Assembly: GCA_002245135.1 (NCBI GenBank)
Contig: NGBS01000305.1
Coordinates: forward strand, 1 to 64,000
Length of the DNA: 64,000 bases
Origin: Proteromonas lacertae
Lineage: Eukaryota
Direction of reading: 5' to 3'
Positions 11,240 through 63,800 of this stretch are shown piece by piece. Within the stretch, counting starts at the first letter, position 1. The number at the start of each line of letters is the position of its first letter. Under the pieces are notes generated by a model. That model was not told the origin of the DNA. It worked only from the letters and a program-made list of their open reading frames with translations, and made no database searches. Made by a program: the position numbers and the translations under genes.

Positions 11240-12650
11240 TTACACAATTAAATCATTATTTAAAAGAAATTCAATTTGAGGGTTAACTAAAATAGAAGTT
11301 TCAGTATAAAAAATAATTTCATCTCCCAATTGAAGATGCTATATATACATTTATATACTACTAATATATATATATTATACCCTAAATATAACTCTTCTAA
11401 ACATAGCATTATACTCATTATAAAGAGGAATATGAACATAAACTATTTTTGATTCTCTAAAAACATCATTATTCAATCCACTCAAGGCAGAATCAAGTTT
11501 TGTCTATAATTTTATAAATACAATAATAGTAATATATTTATACTAACAAGTTATATACAATACATCCTTCAGAAGGAGGATTGCAATTAATTTGAACAGA
11601 TACTTTACTTGATTTATAAGTTTTTGTATTTAATTTATAAATTAGACAAGGAATATCGACTGTATCTGATACAACAAGTGTATCTTCTTCTTTCATTAAT
11701 CTTGAGAGAATTAATCTAAAGAATACTACATCTAAATTACTATAAAATTGTTTGGAATATTTGACTTTACATTCTGATATCATTTGTCTCTAAATAAAAT
11801 ATAACAACAACAATAATAATAATAAATATACTGAATAACAAACTAATGGATCAATATCTATGTAAATAATTAAATTTGGTAATTGATTCTGTAGTATTTT
11901 ATTCTTCCAATATGTTTTTAAAAATGTAAATTGTTCATAAGTAATCTATTTAAATAAAATGCATCTAAAAAATACTAAATTCATTTCATATTGTAATAGA
12001 ATAAATGCCCAAATATATAAATGACTTCCATCAAATAAATACACAGTTTTATTGTTATATTTCTATTCATAATAAAAAATGAAAATATACTTTTATTACT
12101 TGGTTTATTAGCACAGTTAGATATATTGAACATAGTGTAAATGAATACTGCTGTGGATTTTTAGTCCATAATTCTGTAAATTCATCATCATATTGAATGG
12201 ATTTATATTTAATTCTGATTGTTTCAACTCTCTTCCCCATATAGTCTTGAATGAATTTAAATAAATTTGTTTTACCACTTTGAATATTTCCATCTATACA
12301 CCATGTTGAACCAATGGAAGTATTTGTAGTTTTTGAATTACGAAATAGTTCTTGTAATTCCTTATTCTGTGATAAAACAGACTAATCATCCATAATATAA
12401 ATAGGGTATATACCAAGATTTTATTGGGATCTACAACCAATCTGTCATTACCTTTAGACTTATGTGTTTCAACGATTTTGGATATTATTTCTTCTGATAA
12501 TGTCTTTAAAACACCTGATAAATAAGCACTTGCTGTAGGAGTTATGTCATTAACCAATTTAGCACTTTTTAATTTCTTTTCTAATACATCTGGTGGGAAT
12601 TCGACTTTATCATCCTTTTTCTTTTTCTCTGATGTTCTTTTTCTCTTCAT
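11240..12650 (-). CDS. Histone H2A-fold / deoxynucleoside-kinase-like fusion protein (398 aa, 7 exons)
   Basis: Introns at 12382-12413, 12063-12090, 11946-11975, 11790-11831, 11504-11543 and 11339-11380 (all phase 0) give one ORF. The N-terminus VEFP..AYLSGVL..LSEEII..P..I...QNKELQELF aligns to H2A. It is followed by the P-loop IDGNIQSGKT and dNK-like PNLIIYIDIDPLVCYSR. Confidence 0.78.
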
Positions 12651-55964: not shown

Positions 55965-56286
55965 ATGGCTATTGATAGAATGAAATAGATTTTACAAATG
56001 AGGATGAAGTTATGACACCAATATATATATAATTATTACAATAGTTGTCAATTAGAAGGAACTGTAATACCAATTTGTATAACTGATATTCAGTTAATTG
56101 AAGAGCATGAAAGAAGGAGTATTCATATGCTTTTAACAAAATTACGTTTGTAATAATGTAGAAAATGAAGATAAATAGTTCAAGCTTGATCAAACTCTAA
56201 ATATAATTCTTTAGAATTCTTAGTGTTTATTTTTGCCCAATTTGCTCAATCCAGTAAAAATAAAAGATGTATATTTTTAATTATTT

Positions 56287-59200
56287 ATGTGTAGGGCAAT
56301 GAAGAGACAAGTAGACTATACTTCCAAAAATACTAGAAAAGCTAAAAGAGCGAGAATAGCTGAAGGTATTAACAGTGAAAATGAGTTTGATAATTTTGTA
56401 GAAATCATTAATAGTTTGAGTCTTTGTGATGATGATGATAAATGTTTAAAATTTAGTGATACAGTGGATATATTTCAGTTTCCTCTAAGAAAAATTTATA
56501 TGAGAGGGTGTTATGAAGTGATGTTTAGAGACATATGTAAAAGTATGTTGTGTTATGACAATGTAGTGATAACAGGTCAACCAGGCATAGGGAAAACCTC
56601 GTTTATATATGCTTTACTGTATTTCATTAAGAATTTACGAATAGACTTTAATAAAACAGAAAAGAAATATTTATTAGAAAGAGAATTGAATAGAGAAAGT
56701 GAAGAAATAGAAGAACTAATAAAAGAATTAAATGTAAAATTTGATGAGAAAAAAGAATCACTAGAAAATGATTTATCAAGCATTGATAGTGTGATAAATA
56801 CATGTAATGTTCGTAAAGAAGAATTGGAAAAAGAAATCAAAACACATTGTGATAATCTAAAGAAGATGATAGTTAATGGTTGTATTAATATATATAATAA
56901 TTTATACTTAATAAAAAATAATAAAAAAAATTGCACATTGTACAATATCGATCAAAATAAAGATATAATACTATCAAAAGAAAAGATGCGTGAACATTGT
57001 CAAGAACGTGGATTATTTTATTTGGATAAAATTAACAGCAGTATGAGTAATATAAATACTGCTACATTTGATGTTAAAGATACAATAATGAATGATTTAG
57101 AAGAAATAGAAAATAAATATAAGAAAAAATCAATTCCATTAAAAGAAATGATTGAATTTTATATCTTAATTAAAAAGATAAATACTAGAATGATGAACAT
57201 AATCAATCTAAATTATTCAGTAAATATAAATAATGCAAGAAAGAGCAAATTAGAAAGTGATTTGGCTGGATTAGATGGTTTATATGGGAAGATTCGAGAC
57301 ATTATGAATATTTCAATGAATAAAAGAAAACAAATAACAAGTGGATTTAAAAAATGCAAAGAATATGAAGAAGAAGTAGAAGAATTAAAAGGATTTAATT
57401 ATTATTTCTTAGATGCTTTTACTAGAAGTGTTAATAAAAAAGGCAACAAAGTTACAATCAACATATTAAAAGATATATATATAGTGAAAGGGAAGAAAAA
57501 CGGAAAGAATGAAGCAATAGTATATCTATTCAAAAATGGTAAAGTTTCGAAAGTTCCAATTCAACCGTGTGATATAAATGATTCAATAATAATAGTGGAT
57601 ACATTTAATGGTACATTTGAAGGTAGAAATAAAATCATATCAATCAGTTCACCTGATCATAAAAATAATGACAAATATACAAAAAATACTACTAAAAAGA
57701 AAGAATTATATTTTGATTCATTAAATGATGAAGAAATTAAAGAATGGTTTGAAAAATGTATTGGTTTTGATGTTGATGTAAATAATGATAAATTTAAAGA
57801 GACATGTCAAAAATATGGTAATATTCCAAGACAGATTTACTTTCACTATTTATATGCAAAGAATTACAATAAAGATTATTGGAAATATTACACAGAATTA
57901 ATCGAAGGTGTAGTTGGTTGTACAAGATATAATGATTTTTTAAAGAATTATATGGATAAAGAGTATTTGAAGAAAGAAGATTCATCAAATATTTTATTAA
58001 AATATGATTTAGAAGAACAATATGATGAATATTTAGGACATAATATATTAACTCCAAAAGATCATTTAAAATTCGTTTCAGATGCTGTAGAAAAATATAT
58101 AGTTAATAAATTCTATCCTGTTAAAGATGAAACAGAATACCAAACAATAAAACAAAACATCGACACAATTGATGATGATGATAAATTTATGAAAAGAATA
58201 GCTATGAAACAAATAATAGCATATGAGTTAAGTACTGGAATTATTGAATTAGAAATGAATCGTAGGGATTGTAATGATGAAGTTACTATAATTGACAGTA
58301 ATCCTGATTTCAAATTAAATTCTGAAAAACATGTATCAATTCATTATCCAGTTGGTGCATTACATTATGTTTATTACATATTGGATGAAGAAAACTATTT
58401 TGATTTGATTATAAATGGAGTGTTTATAAAAATATTCTTAGATGATGAAGAATTTAAAGATGATGATGAATTAGGTTATATTGTTGAAGATGAAACAGAA
58501 GAAAGAATCAGAAAATCAATAAAAGTATCAATATATTATATAATATTTAATTTTATTCTAGGATTATAGTGAAGATAAAAAAGGCACATTCATGTATGCT
58601 GTAATAAAGAATTATAATCTCTATGCATATGATGTAAACTTTGTAATTGAACATTCACCAGATGAAAAACCATCACAATCCTCAGTAACAGAAAGAAAAG
58701 GAAGAGCAGAGAGAAAAATTGCAATAGAAGTTAATACAGAAGTATATGTAGATAGAAACACATTATTGATAATGAGAAAATGTTTCTATGATATGTTGAA
58801 TATTATTTGTAGAGATAAATTTAATTATGATAATCAAAGAAACTATTTGATATTTGGTCATTCTAAAATCGGAAAATCAGTATTATCACACCTTATAAGA
58901 GATTATATTCATGAACACTATAGAAATATTAGAATAGTCTATAAATATAATGATAATACTGTTTCTTATGTTAAAGAAAATTATTATTTTAATAAGAATC
59001 TTCATCCATATATTGTAATTTCTGATGGAGGAGTAATAGGTGAAGATGATTATGCCGATGCAAAATCAGTAATTCTATTAGCTAATCCATCTGAAAAAGA
59101 GTATAAAACTTTTCAAAGTAAAAGATGTCCATTGTTGATATATATACCACCATTTACAAAAGAAGAAGTAAATAAAGTAAAATTAGTTCAAGATGTAGAA

Positions 59201-60829: not shown

Positions 60830-63800
60830 ATAAATGGGACTCTGGCATAATGTACCATAGTCCCATTTATGTAAGGTTCCTACGGGATTCCTCCCAACAG
60901 GGTCTACTTCTCAACAGAGTCTACTTCCCTACGGGGACTCCTCTAAGCTATTTCTATACCTATCTATGAGACGATCTCCTACAGGTACTCCTGTAAGCTA
61001 TCTAGAAGTGTTGGTTACCTCGAGGTGATGATTCTAATCATGCTCTTGACTCTCCTTGCTACGCTGGTGACCTTGTAAGGGCTTTTAATTGAACCGTGGA
61101 AACCAATCGTGGAACCGGGAGTTTACAATTGTTAACTTGTTACCAATTGGTAACTTCGATAGACTTGAATAGTTGAAATCATTTACCTTGTGAAGTATAA
61201 ATGGATCCAACCCAAGCAACATCTCCATTGAATGATAAAGTAGTCATAGAACAAGACTCTTCCAGGGACTTCAATTTAGCTTCTCAACTATCCCAGGTAA
61301 GCAACTACACACCACTGGTAGAATCATCCTCCGAAGGTAAGGTCAAGAGATCACATAAGGAACTTCATAAGGCAGCTGAGGATCATCCAGCTAAGAAGTC
61401 ACGGGTCAACAAAGTTTATTTCATCGAAGCACTGCTGGAGGTGCCCAAGGAAGTGATTGATCCTAGCAGTATTATAAATGTACGTATTGCTATGTTCAGC
61501 TTTGCTTACTCCGCAATCGCAGCTCTTCATCATCATCAACTCAGTAAGAACGCAGCCACTGAGAATCCCGAGATGTACTCCAAGTACTTAAGCAAGTACA
61601 TCATTAACTACCAACACCCTATAGCAAATCCAATATCATCTTCCAGGCTCATCGACTCCTTTGAAGAGAACAATAACGTGGGTGTTCACATCTATCAATT
61701 GAAGGGATCGCATTTACGATTAGCCAGACGCAGTAGCTGTACTTTACCGATGACTTCTCCTGATCATATAAGTAATGCAGATGATGATGAACGTCTTACT
61801 AATAGAGATTTTGAAGATATCATTTATGATAATGCTAAAAAGTTAGTAAGGTTTAGGTTAGATGAAATAATTGATAAAAGACTTATACCTGTAGAATGTG
61901 TGCATATGAAGTTATTTAATTGGTGTAAATCGTTATATCAACATGGACCATTTTCAAGAAATAAACCTTTACATCAATACAGTTATGAATCAAATAATGA
62001 TGTTAAAATAATAGTTGATAGATTAAATAAAGCAATTGATGAATTATGTATTGCTTCAAATTATATACTTAGGAATAATCCATTTGTCGTGCTTCATCCT
62101 AAAGAAAGATTGAATGTTGTCAAATTAGAAAATAAAAGAATAATAAAAATACAAAAAGAGACAAAGGATCATACTCATCCATTTAATGAAGAAGATGATA
62201 AAGATATATATGATAGTAATAATTATGAAGCAAATACATCAGCACCAGCAAATTCATCACATAATGTTGTAGTACGTCAATCAGCTCAACCACATGCACA
62301 ACAACAACAATCACAAGATAATAATAATGATGATAATGATGATGAAGAAGATGATAATGATTTACCTGATGATCCTTATGAAGATGATCAAGGTAATTTT
62401 TTGCCTTTAGAAGATAATTCTATTCATGCACAAACAATTCAAGTATATAGTTCAAATGCAATAAATAAGATTAGAATTTTTATAAATAAGTTACTGAAAA
62501 CAAAATTTTGGTATATAACAAATCAGCAAGAAAGAACTACATTTTCAATAGCTGTATTAATATATAATTGTGTAACAGAATTATTTTACTTAAGCAAATA
62601 TAGATCACCTAGTTTAAGAGATGGTCATGCATATCCTGAACCTGCTGATTATGATAAAAGAAATATAATGGGTTTACCTTCATCTATTTCTAATGGATAT
62701 CGAATGAATTATATAGCAACAATTCAAAAAATATTAGAGTCAAATAATATAAGGGAAGGTCAAAGAGACACAAATCATTATGCAGATGCAATTATGTTTT
62801 ATATGAATAAATTAACACAAAAGAAGAAATATATTAGTTCATTTCCACCATTATTGCCAGTAGAAGAAGCATTATCTAGAGATTATAATGGAAGATATCA
62901 AGTTACAAATCCTAATAGAGGTAATGTAAATGTAAATTTTAGAAATAATGTTGAACAACAACCAGTTGTTCCACAATTACAATCATCTCAACAGCAACAA
63001 GAAGAAGAAGAATTATCTCCTATATCTTCATCATCATTACAAGATAATCGATCTCAAAATAATAATATAGATGATAATAATGAAGATACATATAATCTTA
63101 GTTATGATGATGACAATATAGCACAACCACCTCCTTTAGTTTCAAGTGATTATAATAATAATTCACCAAGAGAGGTATCACCAGTATATTCACCAGTAAC
63201 ACCACCATTAGCTCCTTATTCTCAACCACCACAACCACCACCATCATCACAACTATCAAATACAGTTCATCATTTTAGATTTGATGGTACAACAAATCAA
63301 GTTCCTTATTCGTCTATTTTGCATATAGGAATAATGGGAATGATGATGAAACTAGTGATACAGATGTTTCTGAAACAGAATGGAATGATGAATATATTTT
63401 CCATTCACTTAAATTAAAATATGATCCAAATAGTAGTAATAATATAAATTATACAAAAATTGCTGATTTAAAACCTCCTACATTTGTTTTATATAGATTT
63501 AATGATGAATCCTAATGTAGTAAATAAACCTAAAAGGAATGTAAGAGCATTTACTCTGAAAGAATTATTACGTTATTATGCAATAGATTTATTTACTAAA
63601 GTAACTTATATATATGATATACAAGGCTATATGAATAATAAATTTAAAAAAGAAAAGATTGTAATAGTAAAAGATAATGTTCATTATGATAATTTTAAAG
63701 AATATGTAAAAAAATTCAATATTCAATTACCAATTAATACACCAGATATATCCATTTAATACATTAGATAAAAAATCACTTATGCTAAGATTATACGGTT

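Follow-up and report, generated by a model that had tools for sequence, protein, structure and literature searches.

A predicted Proteromonas lacertae gene that joins an H2A-like histone fold to a degenerate deoxynucleoside kinase-like domain

A locus on contig NGBS01000305.1 of Proteromonas lacertae raises the question of whether a histone H2A-like fold and a deoxynucleoside kinase (dNK)-like domain are encoded there as one protein and, if so, whether that protein would act as a nucleosomal histone, as an enzyme, or as neither. A first-pass annotation had proposed a possible new histone variant carrying a nucleotide-sensing pseudo-kinase, with a giant-virus origin worth testing. We addressed this question computationally in a window of 64,000 nt, the whole stretch of DNA analyzed, in which all coordinates below are positions; the gene lies at 11240–12650 on the minus strand, as do all of its exons, introns, and motifs.

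Results

A single predicted gene

The window is AT-rich (GC 0.23–0.32 per 2 kb) and carries eukaryotic genes for a mitochondrial carrier, an adaptin-medium-chain family protein, a PI3-kinase, and a DNA polymerase alpha/epsilon B subunit. The predicted gene begins with an ATG at 12650 and ends with a stop codon at 11242–11240. Removal of six GT-AG introns of 32, 28, 30, 42, 40, and 42 nt (introns 1–6; GC 0.10–0.17 for introns 2–6) joins seven exons into 398 codons with zero internal stops, which reproduces the 398-aa product foreseen by the first-pass annotation. At each junction the candidates were all stop-free, in-frame GT-AG introns of 22–59 nt (6, 3, 1, 3, 2, and 2 candidates at junctions 1–6), and the shortest one starting with GTA was chosen each time. 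A neighboring sulfatase-like gene has three introns of 27, 33, and 31 nt, and GTATWW-to-TAG distances of 30–34 nt are enriched in the window (54 observed versus 31 in shuffles); the six predicted introns of the gene are typical of the surrounding genome. All six are in phase 0, and the three introns of the sulfatase-like gene are in phases 1, 0, and 2.

Exon 1 (12414–12650, aa 1–79) is predicted to encode a basic N-terminal tail and H2A-like helices 1 and 2, reaching the beginning of helix 3, as judged from PDB hits, atlas neighbors, and AlphaFold. Intron 1 (12413–12382, 32 nt, phase 0, GTATAT..GATTAG) would, once removed, unite both segments of the histone fold, and exon 2 (12091–12381, aa 80–176) would supply the end of that fold (aa 80–92), a 12-aa linker, and the N-terminal half of the dNK-like domain, an assignment based on Pfam, the atlas, and the P0001 fragment described below. 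Exon 3 (11976–12062, aa 177–205) lies between intron 2 (12063–12090, 28 nt; the same acceptor with a 37-nt intron would likewise keep the frame) and intron 3 (11946–11975, 30 nt), the sole stop-free, in-frame candidate at its junction. The gain in dNK score assigns exon 4 (11832–11945, aa 206–243) to the dNK helix and strand preceding the lid. Intron 4 (11790–11831, 42 nt), placed by splice signals and frame, leads into exon 5 (11544–11789, aa 244–325), which would hold a degenerate lid, the end of the dNK-like domain, and the start of a third part. Intron 5 (11504–11543, 40 nt) and intron 6 (11339–11380, 42 nt) were placed by splice signals and frame only, and exon 6 (11381–11503, aa 326–366) and exon 7 (11240–11338, aa 367–398 plus the stop), the predicted middle and end of the C-terminal part, by splice signals only.

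Exon 2 holds both the last part of the histone fold and the P-loop. The frame of this exon has a stop directly upstream at the acceptor and its first Met at residue 127, past the P-loop, and the P-loop must therefore be spliced to an upstream exon. Left unspliced, the exon 1 frame stays open to 12294 and overlaps the first dNK strand, which is read in a different frame. When the first 110 aa of the model were compared with the H2A profile, the 32-nt splice scored 16.5 bits, compared with 13.0 for exon 1 by itself and 11.8 for the unspliced reading. A 68-nt alternative for intron 1 scored 21.4 bits, above the 32-nt splice, and it also keeps the fusion in frame; it would be atypically long for this genome and would shorten the histone fold. 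The predicted 32-nt intron at 12382–12413 was thus found, completing both the H2A match and the reading frame, and we infer that it is spliced. The proposed in-frame fusion is borne out by an H2A match that crosses intron 1 and a colinear dNK match that runs over exons 2–5, and both profile matches lie above all shuffles. We conclude that the H2A fold, the dNK-like domain, and the C-terminal third part very probably make up one predicted spliced gene.

Several other features of the window were recorded. Directly downstream of the fusion gene, at 3345–10608 on the minus strand, are three long intron-poor ORFs of 507, 780, and 1135 aa. The outer two give weak P-loop hits, the last also contains a ubiquitin-hydrolase (UCH) domain (E 4.7e-15), and these P-loop ORFs may resemble CRN/RHS-type P-loop proteins. 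A 45-bp tandem repeat (10661–10867, 4.6 copies, 89% matches) lies just upstream of the 507-aa P-loop ORF. On the plus strand, long ORFs of 762 aa (56281–58566; weak AAA_24 hit) and 738 aa (61201–63414) have no confident Pfam family.

The histone fold and its missing H2A features

We scored the model with an H2A profile built from 24 sequences and with 2001 shuffled or reversed controls. The profile matched aa 8–94, across intron 1, at 13.2 bits, with the best control at 4.7. Against PDB sequences, 41 of the 42 hits of exon 1 were H2A, all of them weak (best E 0.12, a cellular H2A). The atlas neighbors of exon 1 are histone-fold clusters at 0.80–0.84, which we treat as a lead only; CENP-W, H2A, and NF-Y-type clusters rank alike there, at 0.82–0.84. 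Pfam returned no histone match for exon 1. Single-sequence AlphaFold modeled exon 1 with helices at 20–29 and 38–66 (29 residues) and a pLDDT of 72.7. A Foldseek search with this model gave four matches, all with E > 2 and three of them nucleosome chains, and the best Z in a VIA fold search was 3.6; neither comparison was informative. The sequence pattern of the histone part thus appears closest to H2A, weakly so.

The predicted N-terminal tail is basic, with 7 Lys and 2 Arg within 15 aa. Kept from H2A are the Phe-Pro with which helix 1 begins and the Tyr/Leu/Val/Leu core of helix 2, a helix that retains its hydrophobic core pattern while its surface charges are lost; the H2A majority residue is matched at only 16 of 88 aligned columns. 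H2A contacts DNA through arginines R29, R32, R35, R42, and R77, whose equivalents here are V22, K25, K28, D35, and V72, and the equivalents of R81 and R88 are N76 and S83. The acidic patch of H2A is formed by E56, E61, E64, D90, E91, and E92; these positions are occupied by K49, E54, S57, N85, K86, and E87, so that two of the six are kept. The H2A alignment stops at about aa 94–96, and the docking domain is absent.

The H2A-type fold proposed in the first-pass annotation therefore stands, and the term histone variant is weakened because DNA-contact arginines, acidic patch, and docking domain are missing (the equivalents of R29, R42, R77, R81, and R88, together with four of the six patch residues). 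As read from the predicted protein, these lost features argue against a canonical nucleosomal role, which they leave doubtful. They do not bar entry into a nucleosome, because Medusavirus H2A, which has a divergent docking domain and a weak acidic patch, forms nucleosome-like particles (PMC11500106).

A dNK-like domain that lacks its catalytic residues

The dNK profile was built from 86 sequences, consisting of 78 from viral contigs (chosen by P-loop pattern) and 8 annotated phage enzymes. It matched aa 107–244 of the model, across four exons, at 37.4 bits (E 1.2e-13; best control 10.1), and when only the 8 phage enzymes were used to build it, the profile scored 15.5 bits versus a best control of 9.3. 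Pfam dNK (PF01712) matched exon 2 alone at E 5.1e-5 and 23.6 bits, below the 27-bit cut-off, and the atlas dNK clusters for exon 2 were at 0.92–0.93. The dNK score climbed from 16.9 bits for exon 2 to 37.7 for exons 2–4, with profile columns 5–149 in order, and this growth supports introns 2 and 3. The dNK-like domain could be aligned to about aa 275 and, by eye, to about 290. Single-sequence AlphaFold of exon 2 gave no usable fold (pLDDT 42).

All of the dNK-like motifs quoted by the first-pass annotation are present in the sequence, and the dNK residues that are kept are G110, G115, K116, T117, D187, and R244. The P-loop (12268–12291, aa 110–117) retains the Walker A pattern GxxxxGK[ST], with Gln113 in place of a dNK-specific Gly found in 86/86 references and Asn118 in place of the next Thr (83/86). 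At the position of the catalytic Glu, which is present in all 86 references, there is Lys139 (12202–12204). In the nucleoside pocket, Tyr (85/86) is replaced by T152, Gln (79/86) by C163, and Arg (69/86) by V169 or L170. Exon 3 has D187-G188-S189 where dNKs have the E/D-R-S motif, G188 replacing an Arg found in 83 of the 86 references. Of the lid, R244 alone is left; the profile alignment ends there, and the next 20 residues contain no Arg.

The reported loss of the catalytic Glu, the D/ERS Arg, and the lid is confirmed against these 86 references, and, as predicted, the domain cannot be a deoxynucleoside kinase of known mechanism. The P-loop may still bind a phosphate or NTP. The nucleotide-sensing role that had been suggested fares less well; Walker A and Asp187 are kept, and the pocket Tyr, Gln, and Arg are also lost. 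Specific dNTP sensing appears less likely because the missing pocket residues are ones that dGTP-binding NDUFA10 keeps.

A C-terminal third part

The model also contains a C-terminal part of ~105 aa (about aa 290–398) that was absent from the first-pass annotation. By eye, aa 290–398 show alternating hydrophobic stretches resembling an alpha/beta domain. Exon 6 had no Pfam, NCBIfam, PHROG, or PDB hit, exon 7 had no family match, and exon 5 gave only brief PDB alignments to unrelated proteins, with E 0.058 or worse. A 52-sequence macro domain profile did not match the whole model, and single-sequence hhalign of the C-terminal part against macro domains scored 12.4–12.6, under the best shuffles. 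For dCMP deaminase there was no HAE or PCxxC zinc-ligand motif, the profile score was −0.4 bits, and the hhalign and glocal scores fell within the shuffle range (143/500 shuffles as high). For a second dNK repeat, the internal-repeat score was reached by 145 of 1000 shuffles. A degenerate macro domain, a dCMP deaminase, and a second dNK would thus each be assigned from scores no better than shuffles, although a very degenerate deaminase copy could escape these comparisons.

Conservation

Our searches for conservation, run with single exons or exact words, have little power. Exon 2, compared with 1.84 billion representatives, gave two hits, P0001 and a 3420-aa protein; the latter was set aside, as it had no aligned stretch. 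P0001 is a 51-aa fragment from another assembly, found on 9 contigs and 58% identical to exon 2, and conservation rests on this one fragment, whose span does not include the P-loop. P0001 shares the Lys for the catalytic Glu and the Cys for Gln, suggesting that the dead state is under selection, and it ends one residue beyond the end of exon 2, as would fit reading into the same intron.

The homologue search called for by the first-pass annotation yielded no full-length orthologue. Longer proteins searched with exon 2 included no orthologue among 42 candidates, and those searched with exon 1 none among 111. An alignment of dNK plus H2A gave 77 hits among 7987 scored candidates, with both domains in none, and metagenome scans contained a full-length orthologue in 0/596 and 0/471 stretches. 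Within the 64-kb window, tblastn returned the fusion gene itself and no paralogue. The searches also retrieved many proteins of 350–440 aa (P0007–P0028) that fuse a dNK with an RNase H-like domain (PF13456/PF00075), and proteins of 1114–1557 aa with strong dNK hits (P0003–P0005).

Discussion

The best explanation of this gene, which we hold with roughly even confidence, is that it encodes a non-catalytic histone-fold adaptor and not a working enzyme or an ordinary nucleosome histone. The H2A-derived fold would serve as a dimerization handle in a nuclear complex, its partner being H2B or an H2B-like protein, and the basic N-terminal tail would take the protein to the nucleus. There the histone fold would work apart from stable canonical nucleosomes, or at most replace H2A in a strongly destabilizing way. 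The dead kinase domain would serve as a scaffold for binding other proteins, and its intact P-loop may hold a phosphate group or NTP; the domain would neither recognize nor phosphorylate a deoxynucleoside, and together with the C-terminal part it would provide binding surfaces.

We consider it rather unlikely that the protein is a true nucleosomal H2A variant built like macroH2A, in which a nucleotide-binding dead kinase links nucleotide pools to chromatin. Its architecture would suit such a variant, with H2A first, then a short linker, then a globular ligand-binding fold, and the P-loop domain has kept the Walker A residues Lys116/Thr117 and Asp187. There is also precedent for each half, since divergent viral H2A still makes nucleosome-like particles (PMC11500106) and NDUFA10, a 42-kDa complex I subunit with a dNK fold, binds dGTP with no kinase activity detected (PMC9226000). 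However, NDUFA10 keeps the Glu, Tyr, Gln, Arg, ERS-Arg, and lid that are replaced here, and the H2A part lacks its docking domain, four of the six acidic-patch residues, and the arginines that contact DNA. An old and undescribed H2A variant family in microbial eukaryotes, parallel to macroH2A and using the dead dNK and third domain as a nucleotide or phosphate reader, is a possibility to which we give limited credence. If true, a dead-dNK H2A variant would couple nucleotide metabolism to chromatin. As a second case of H2A joined independently to a dead domain of enzymatic origin, the fusion would show that the design arose more than once.

It is quite unlikely that the P-loop domain remains catalytic, as a kinase or NTPase that the histone fold brings to chromatin and whose substrate is new, larger, or not a nucleoside. 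This reading is favored by the intact GxxxxGKT, by the acid kept at the Mg-binding position, and by conservation of the domain in P0001. Against it, there is no general base, there are no lid arginines, Asn replaces Thr after Walker A, and P0001 does not span the P-loop.

Capture by the host of a giant-virus histone and dNK pair is a question of origin that is compatible with the other readings, and we regard it as very unlikely. Medusavirus H2A (8UA7) was the second PDB hit for exon 1 and the one aligned across most of it (aa 12–78), but its E of 0.14 is not significant and equals that of the top cellular H2A (0.12). Similarly, the top pairwise dNK score belonged to a viral-contig dNK (23.2 bits), but bacterial FolK-dNK (20.7) and eukaryotic dNK (20.5) were about equal to it, phage dNK reached 16.5 bits, and the viral set had been picked by a P-loop pattern like that of the query. 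We built a dNK tree of 49 rows, drawn from 32 of 78 viral, 8 phage, 8 of 36 FolK-dNK, and 2 eukaryotic sequences plus the model, in which the dNK domain lies on a 6.93-substitution branch with no placement among the 48 references. Capture is further opposed by the gene's six introns and cellular neighbors and by the count of viral-contig dNK ORFs carrying an H2A domain (0/78). The giant-virus origin raised by the first-pass annotation consequently found no support, with Medusavirus H2A no better than cellular H2A and the dNK domain unplaceable on its long branch; on these comparisons a viral origin would be neither supported nor contradicted. Two other viral matches came up: L001 was rejected as a chance hit to a small phage ORF adjoining a portal-like gene, and L006, a 911-kb IMG/VR contig, has a near-canonical H2A beside an H2B-like ORF (3-1062).

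Finally, it is highly improbable that the fusion is a modeling artifact or a decaying pseudogene in which a histone-fold gene merely adjoins a broken dNK gene: both domains are very divergent, six stop-free in-frame candidates at junction 1 mean that an in-frame join alone proves little, and P-loop ORFs with no family cut-off matches and a tandem repeat lie just downstream, but removal of the six typical introns leaves 398 codons free of stops and frameshifts, the P-loop exon that carries the end of the H2A fold has no start codon of its own, and P0001 carries the same residue losses.

As an adaptor, our preferred reading, the protein can be set against known systems, and on its predicted sequence it is not macroH2A, an active dNK, or NDUFA10. 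To our knowledge, macroH2A is the one widely known H2A with a globular extra domain; it is about 400 aa long, and its linker is long and basic. The fusion protein resembles it in having an N-terminal H2A domain, a linker, and then a globular domain from a nucleotide-handling enzyme family. It differs in that a dNK P-loop fold takes the place of the macro domain, the H2A part, which has no docking domain, agrees with the majority residue at only 16 of 88 columns, the 12-aa linker (1 Lys and 1 Arg) is not basic, and a third part is present. MacroH2A occurs in holozoans and Meteora according to a survey of eukaryotic chromatin, whose accessible portion names macroH2A and no such fusion and whose supplements may bear on novelty (bioRxiv 10.1101/2021.11.30.470311). 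Full-text literature searches found, with the terms chosen, no report of an H2A–dNK fusion.

The likeness to dCK, dGK, TK2, Dm-dNK, and the bacterial or viral dNKs (PF01712) consists of the colinear profile match over aa 107–244 and the kept Walker A, whereas the catalytic Glu, the substrate Tyr/Gln/Arg, the ERS Arg, and the lid are replaced here. The other long dNK fusions that were retrieved carry RNase H-like or FolK domains, not a histone. NDUFA10 offers a dNK (PF01712) domain in a non-catalytic role. Its nucleotide contacts are K70, E88, R139, E160, R161, K221, and E226, and mutation of its ERS motif lowers or abolishes dGTP binding (PMC9226000). Mapping such contacts through the motifs of the family, rather than by aligning NDUFA10 directly, leaves the fusion protein with just the P-loop Lys and the ERS-motif acid. 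NDUFA10 thus keeps its nucleotide contacts, whereas the fusion protein has lost the equivalents and has a histone fold and a basic N-terminus.

The histone folds of NF-YC, NC2-alpha, POLE4/Dpb3, CENP-W, and H2A.B lack a full docking domain and are used for dimerization. We know of no member of these families with a dNK domain, and the PDB hits of exon 1, 41 of 42 from H2A, include none from NF-YC, NC2-alpha, POLE4, or CENP-W. The fusion protein is like these proteins and H2A.B in having no full docking domain, and its atlas neighbors include CENP-W and NF-Y-type clusters.
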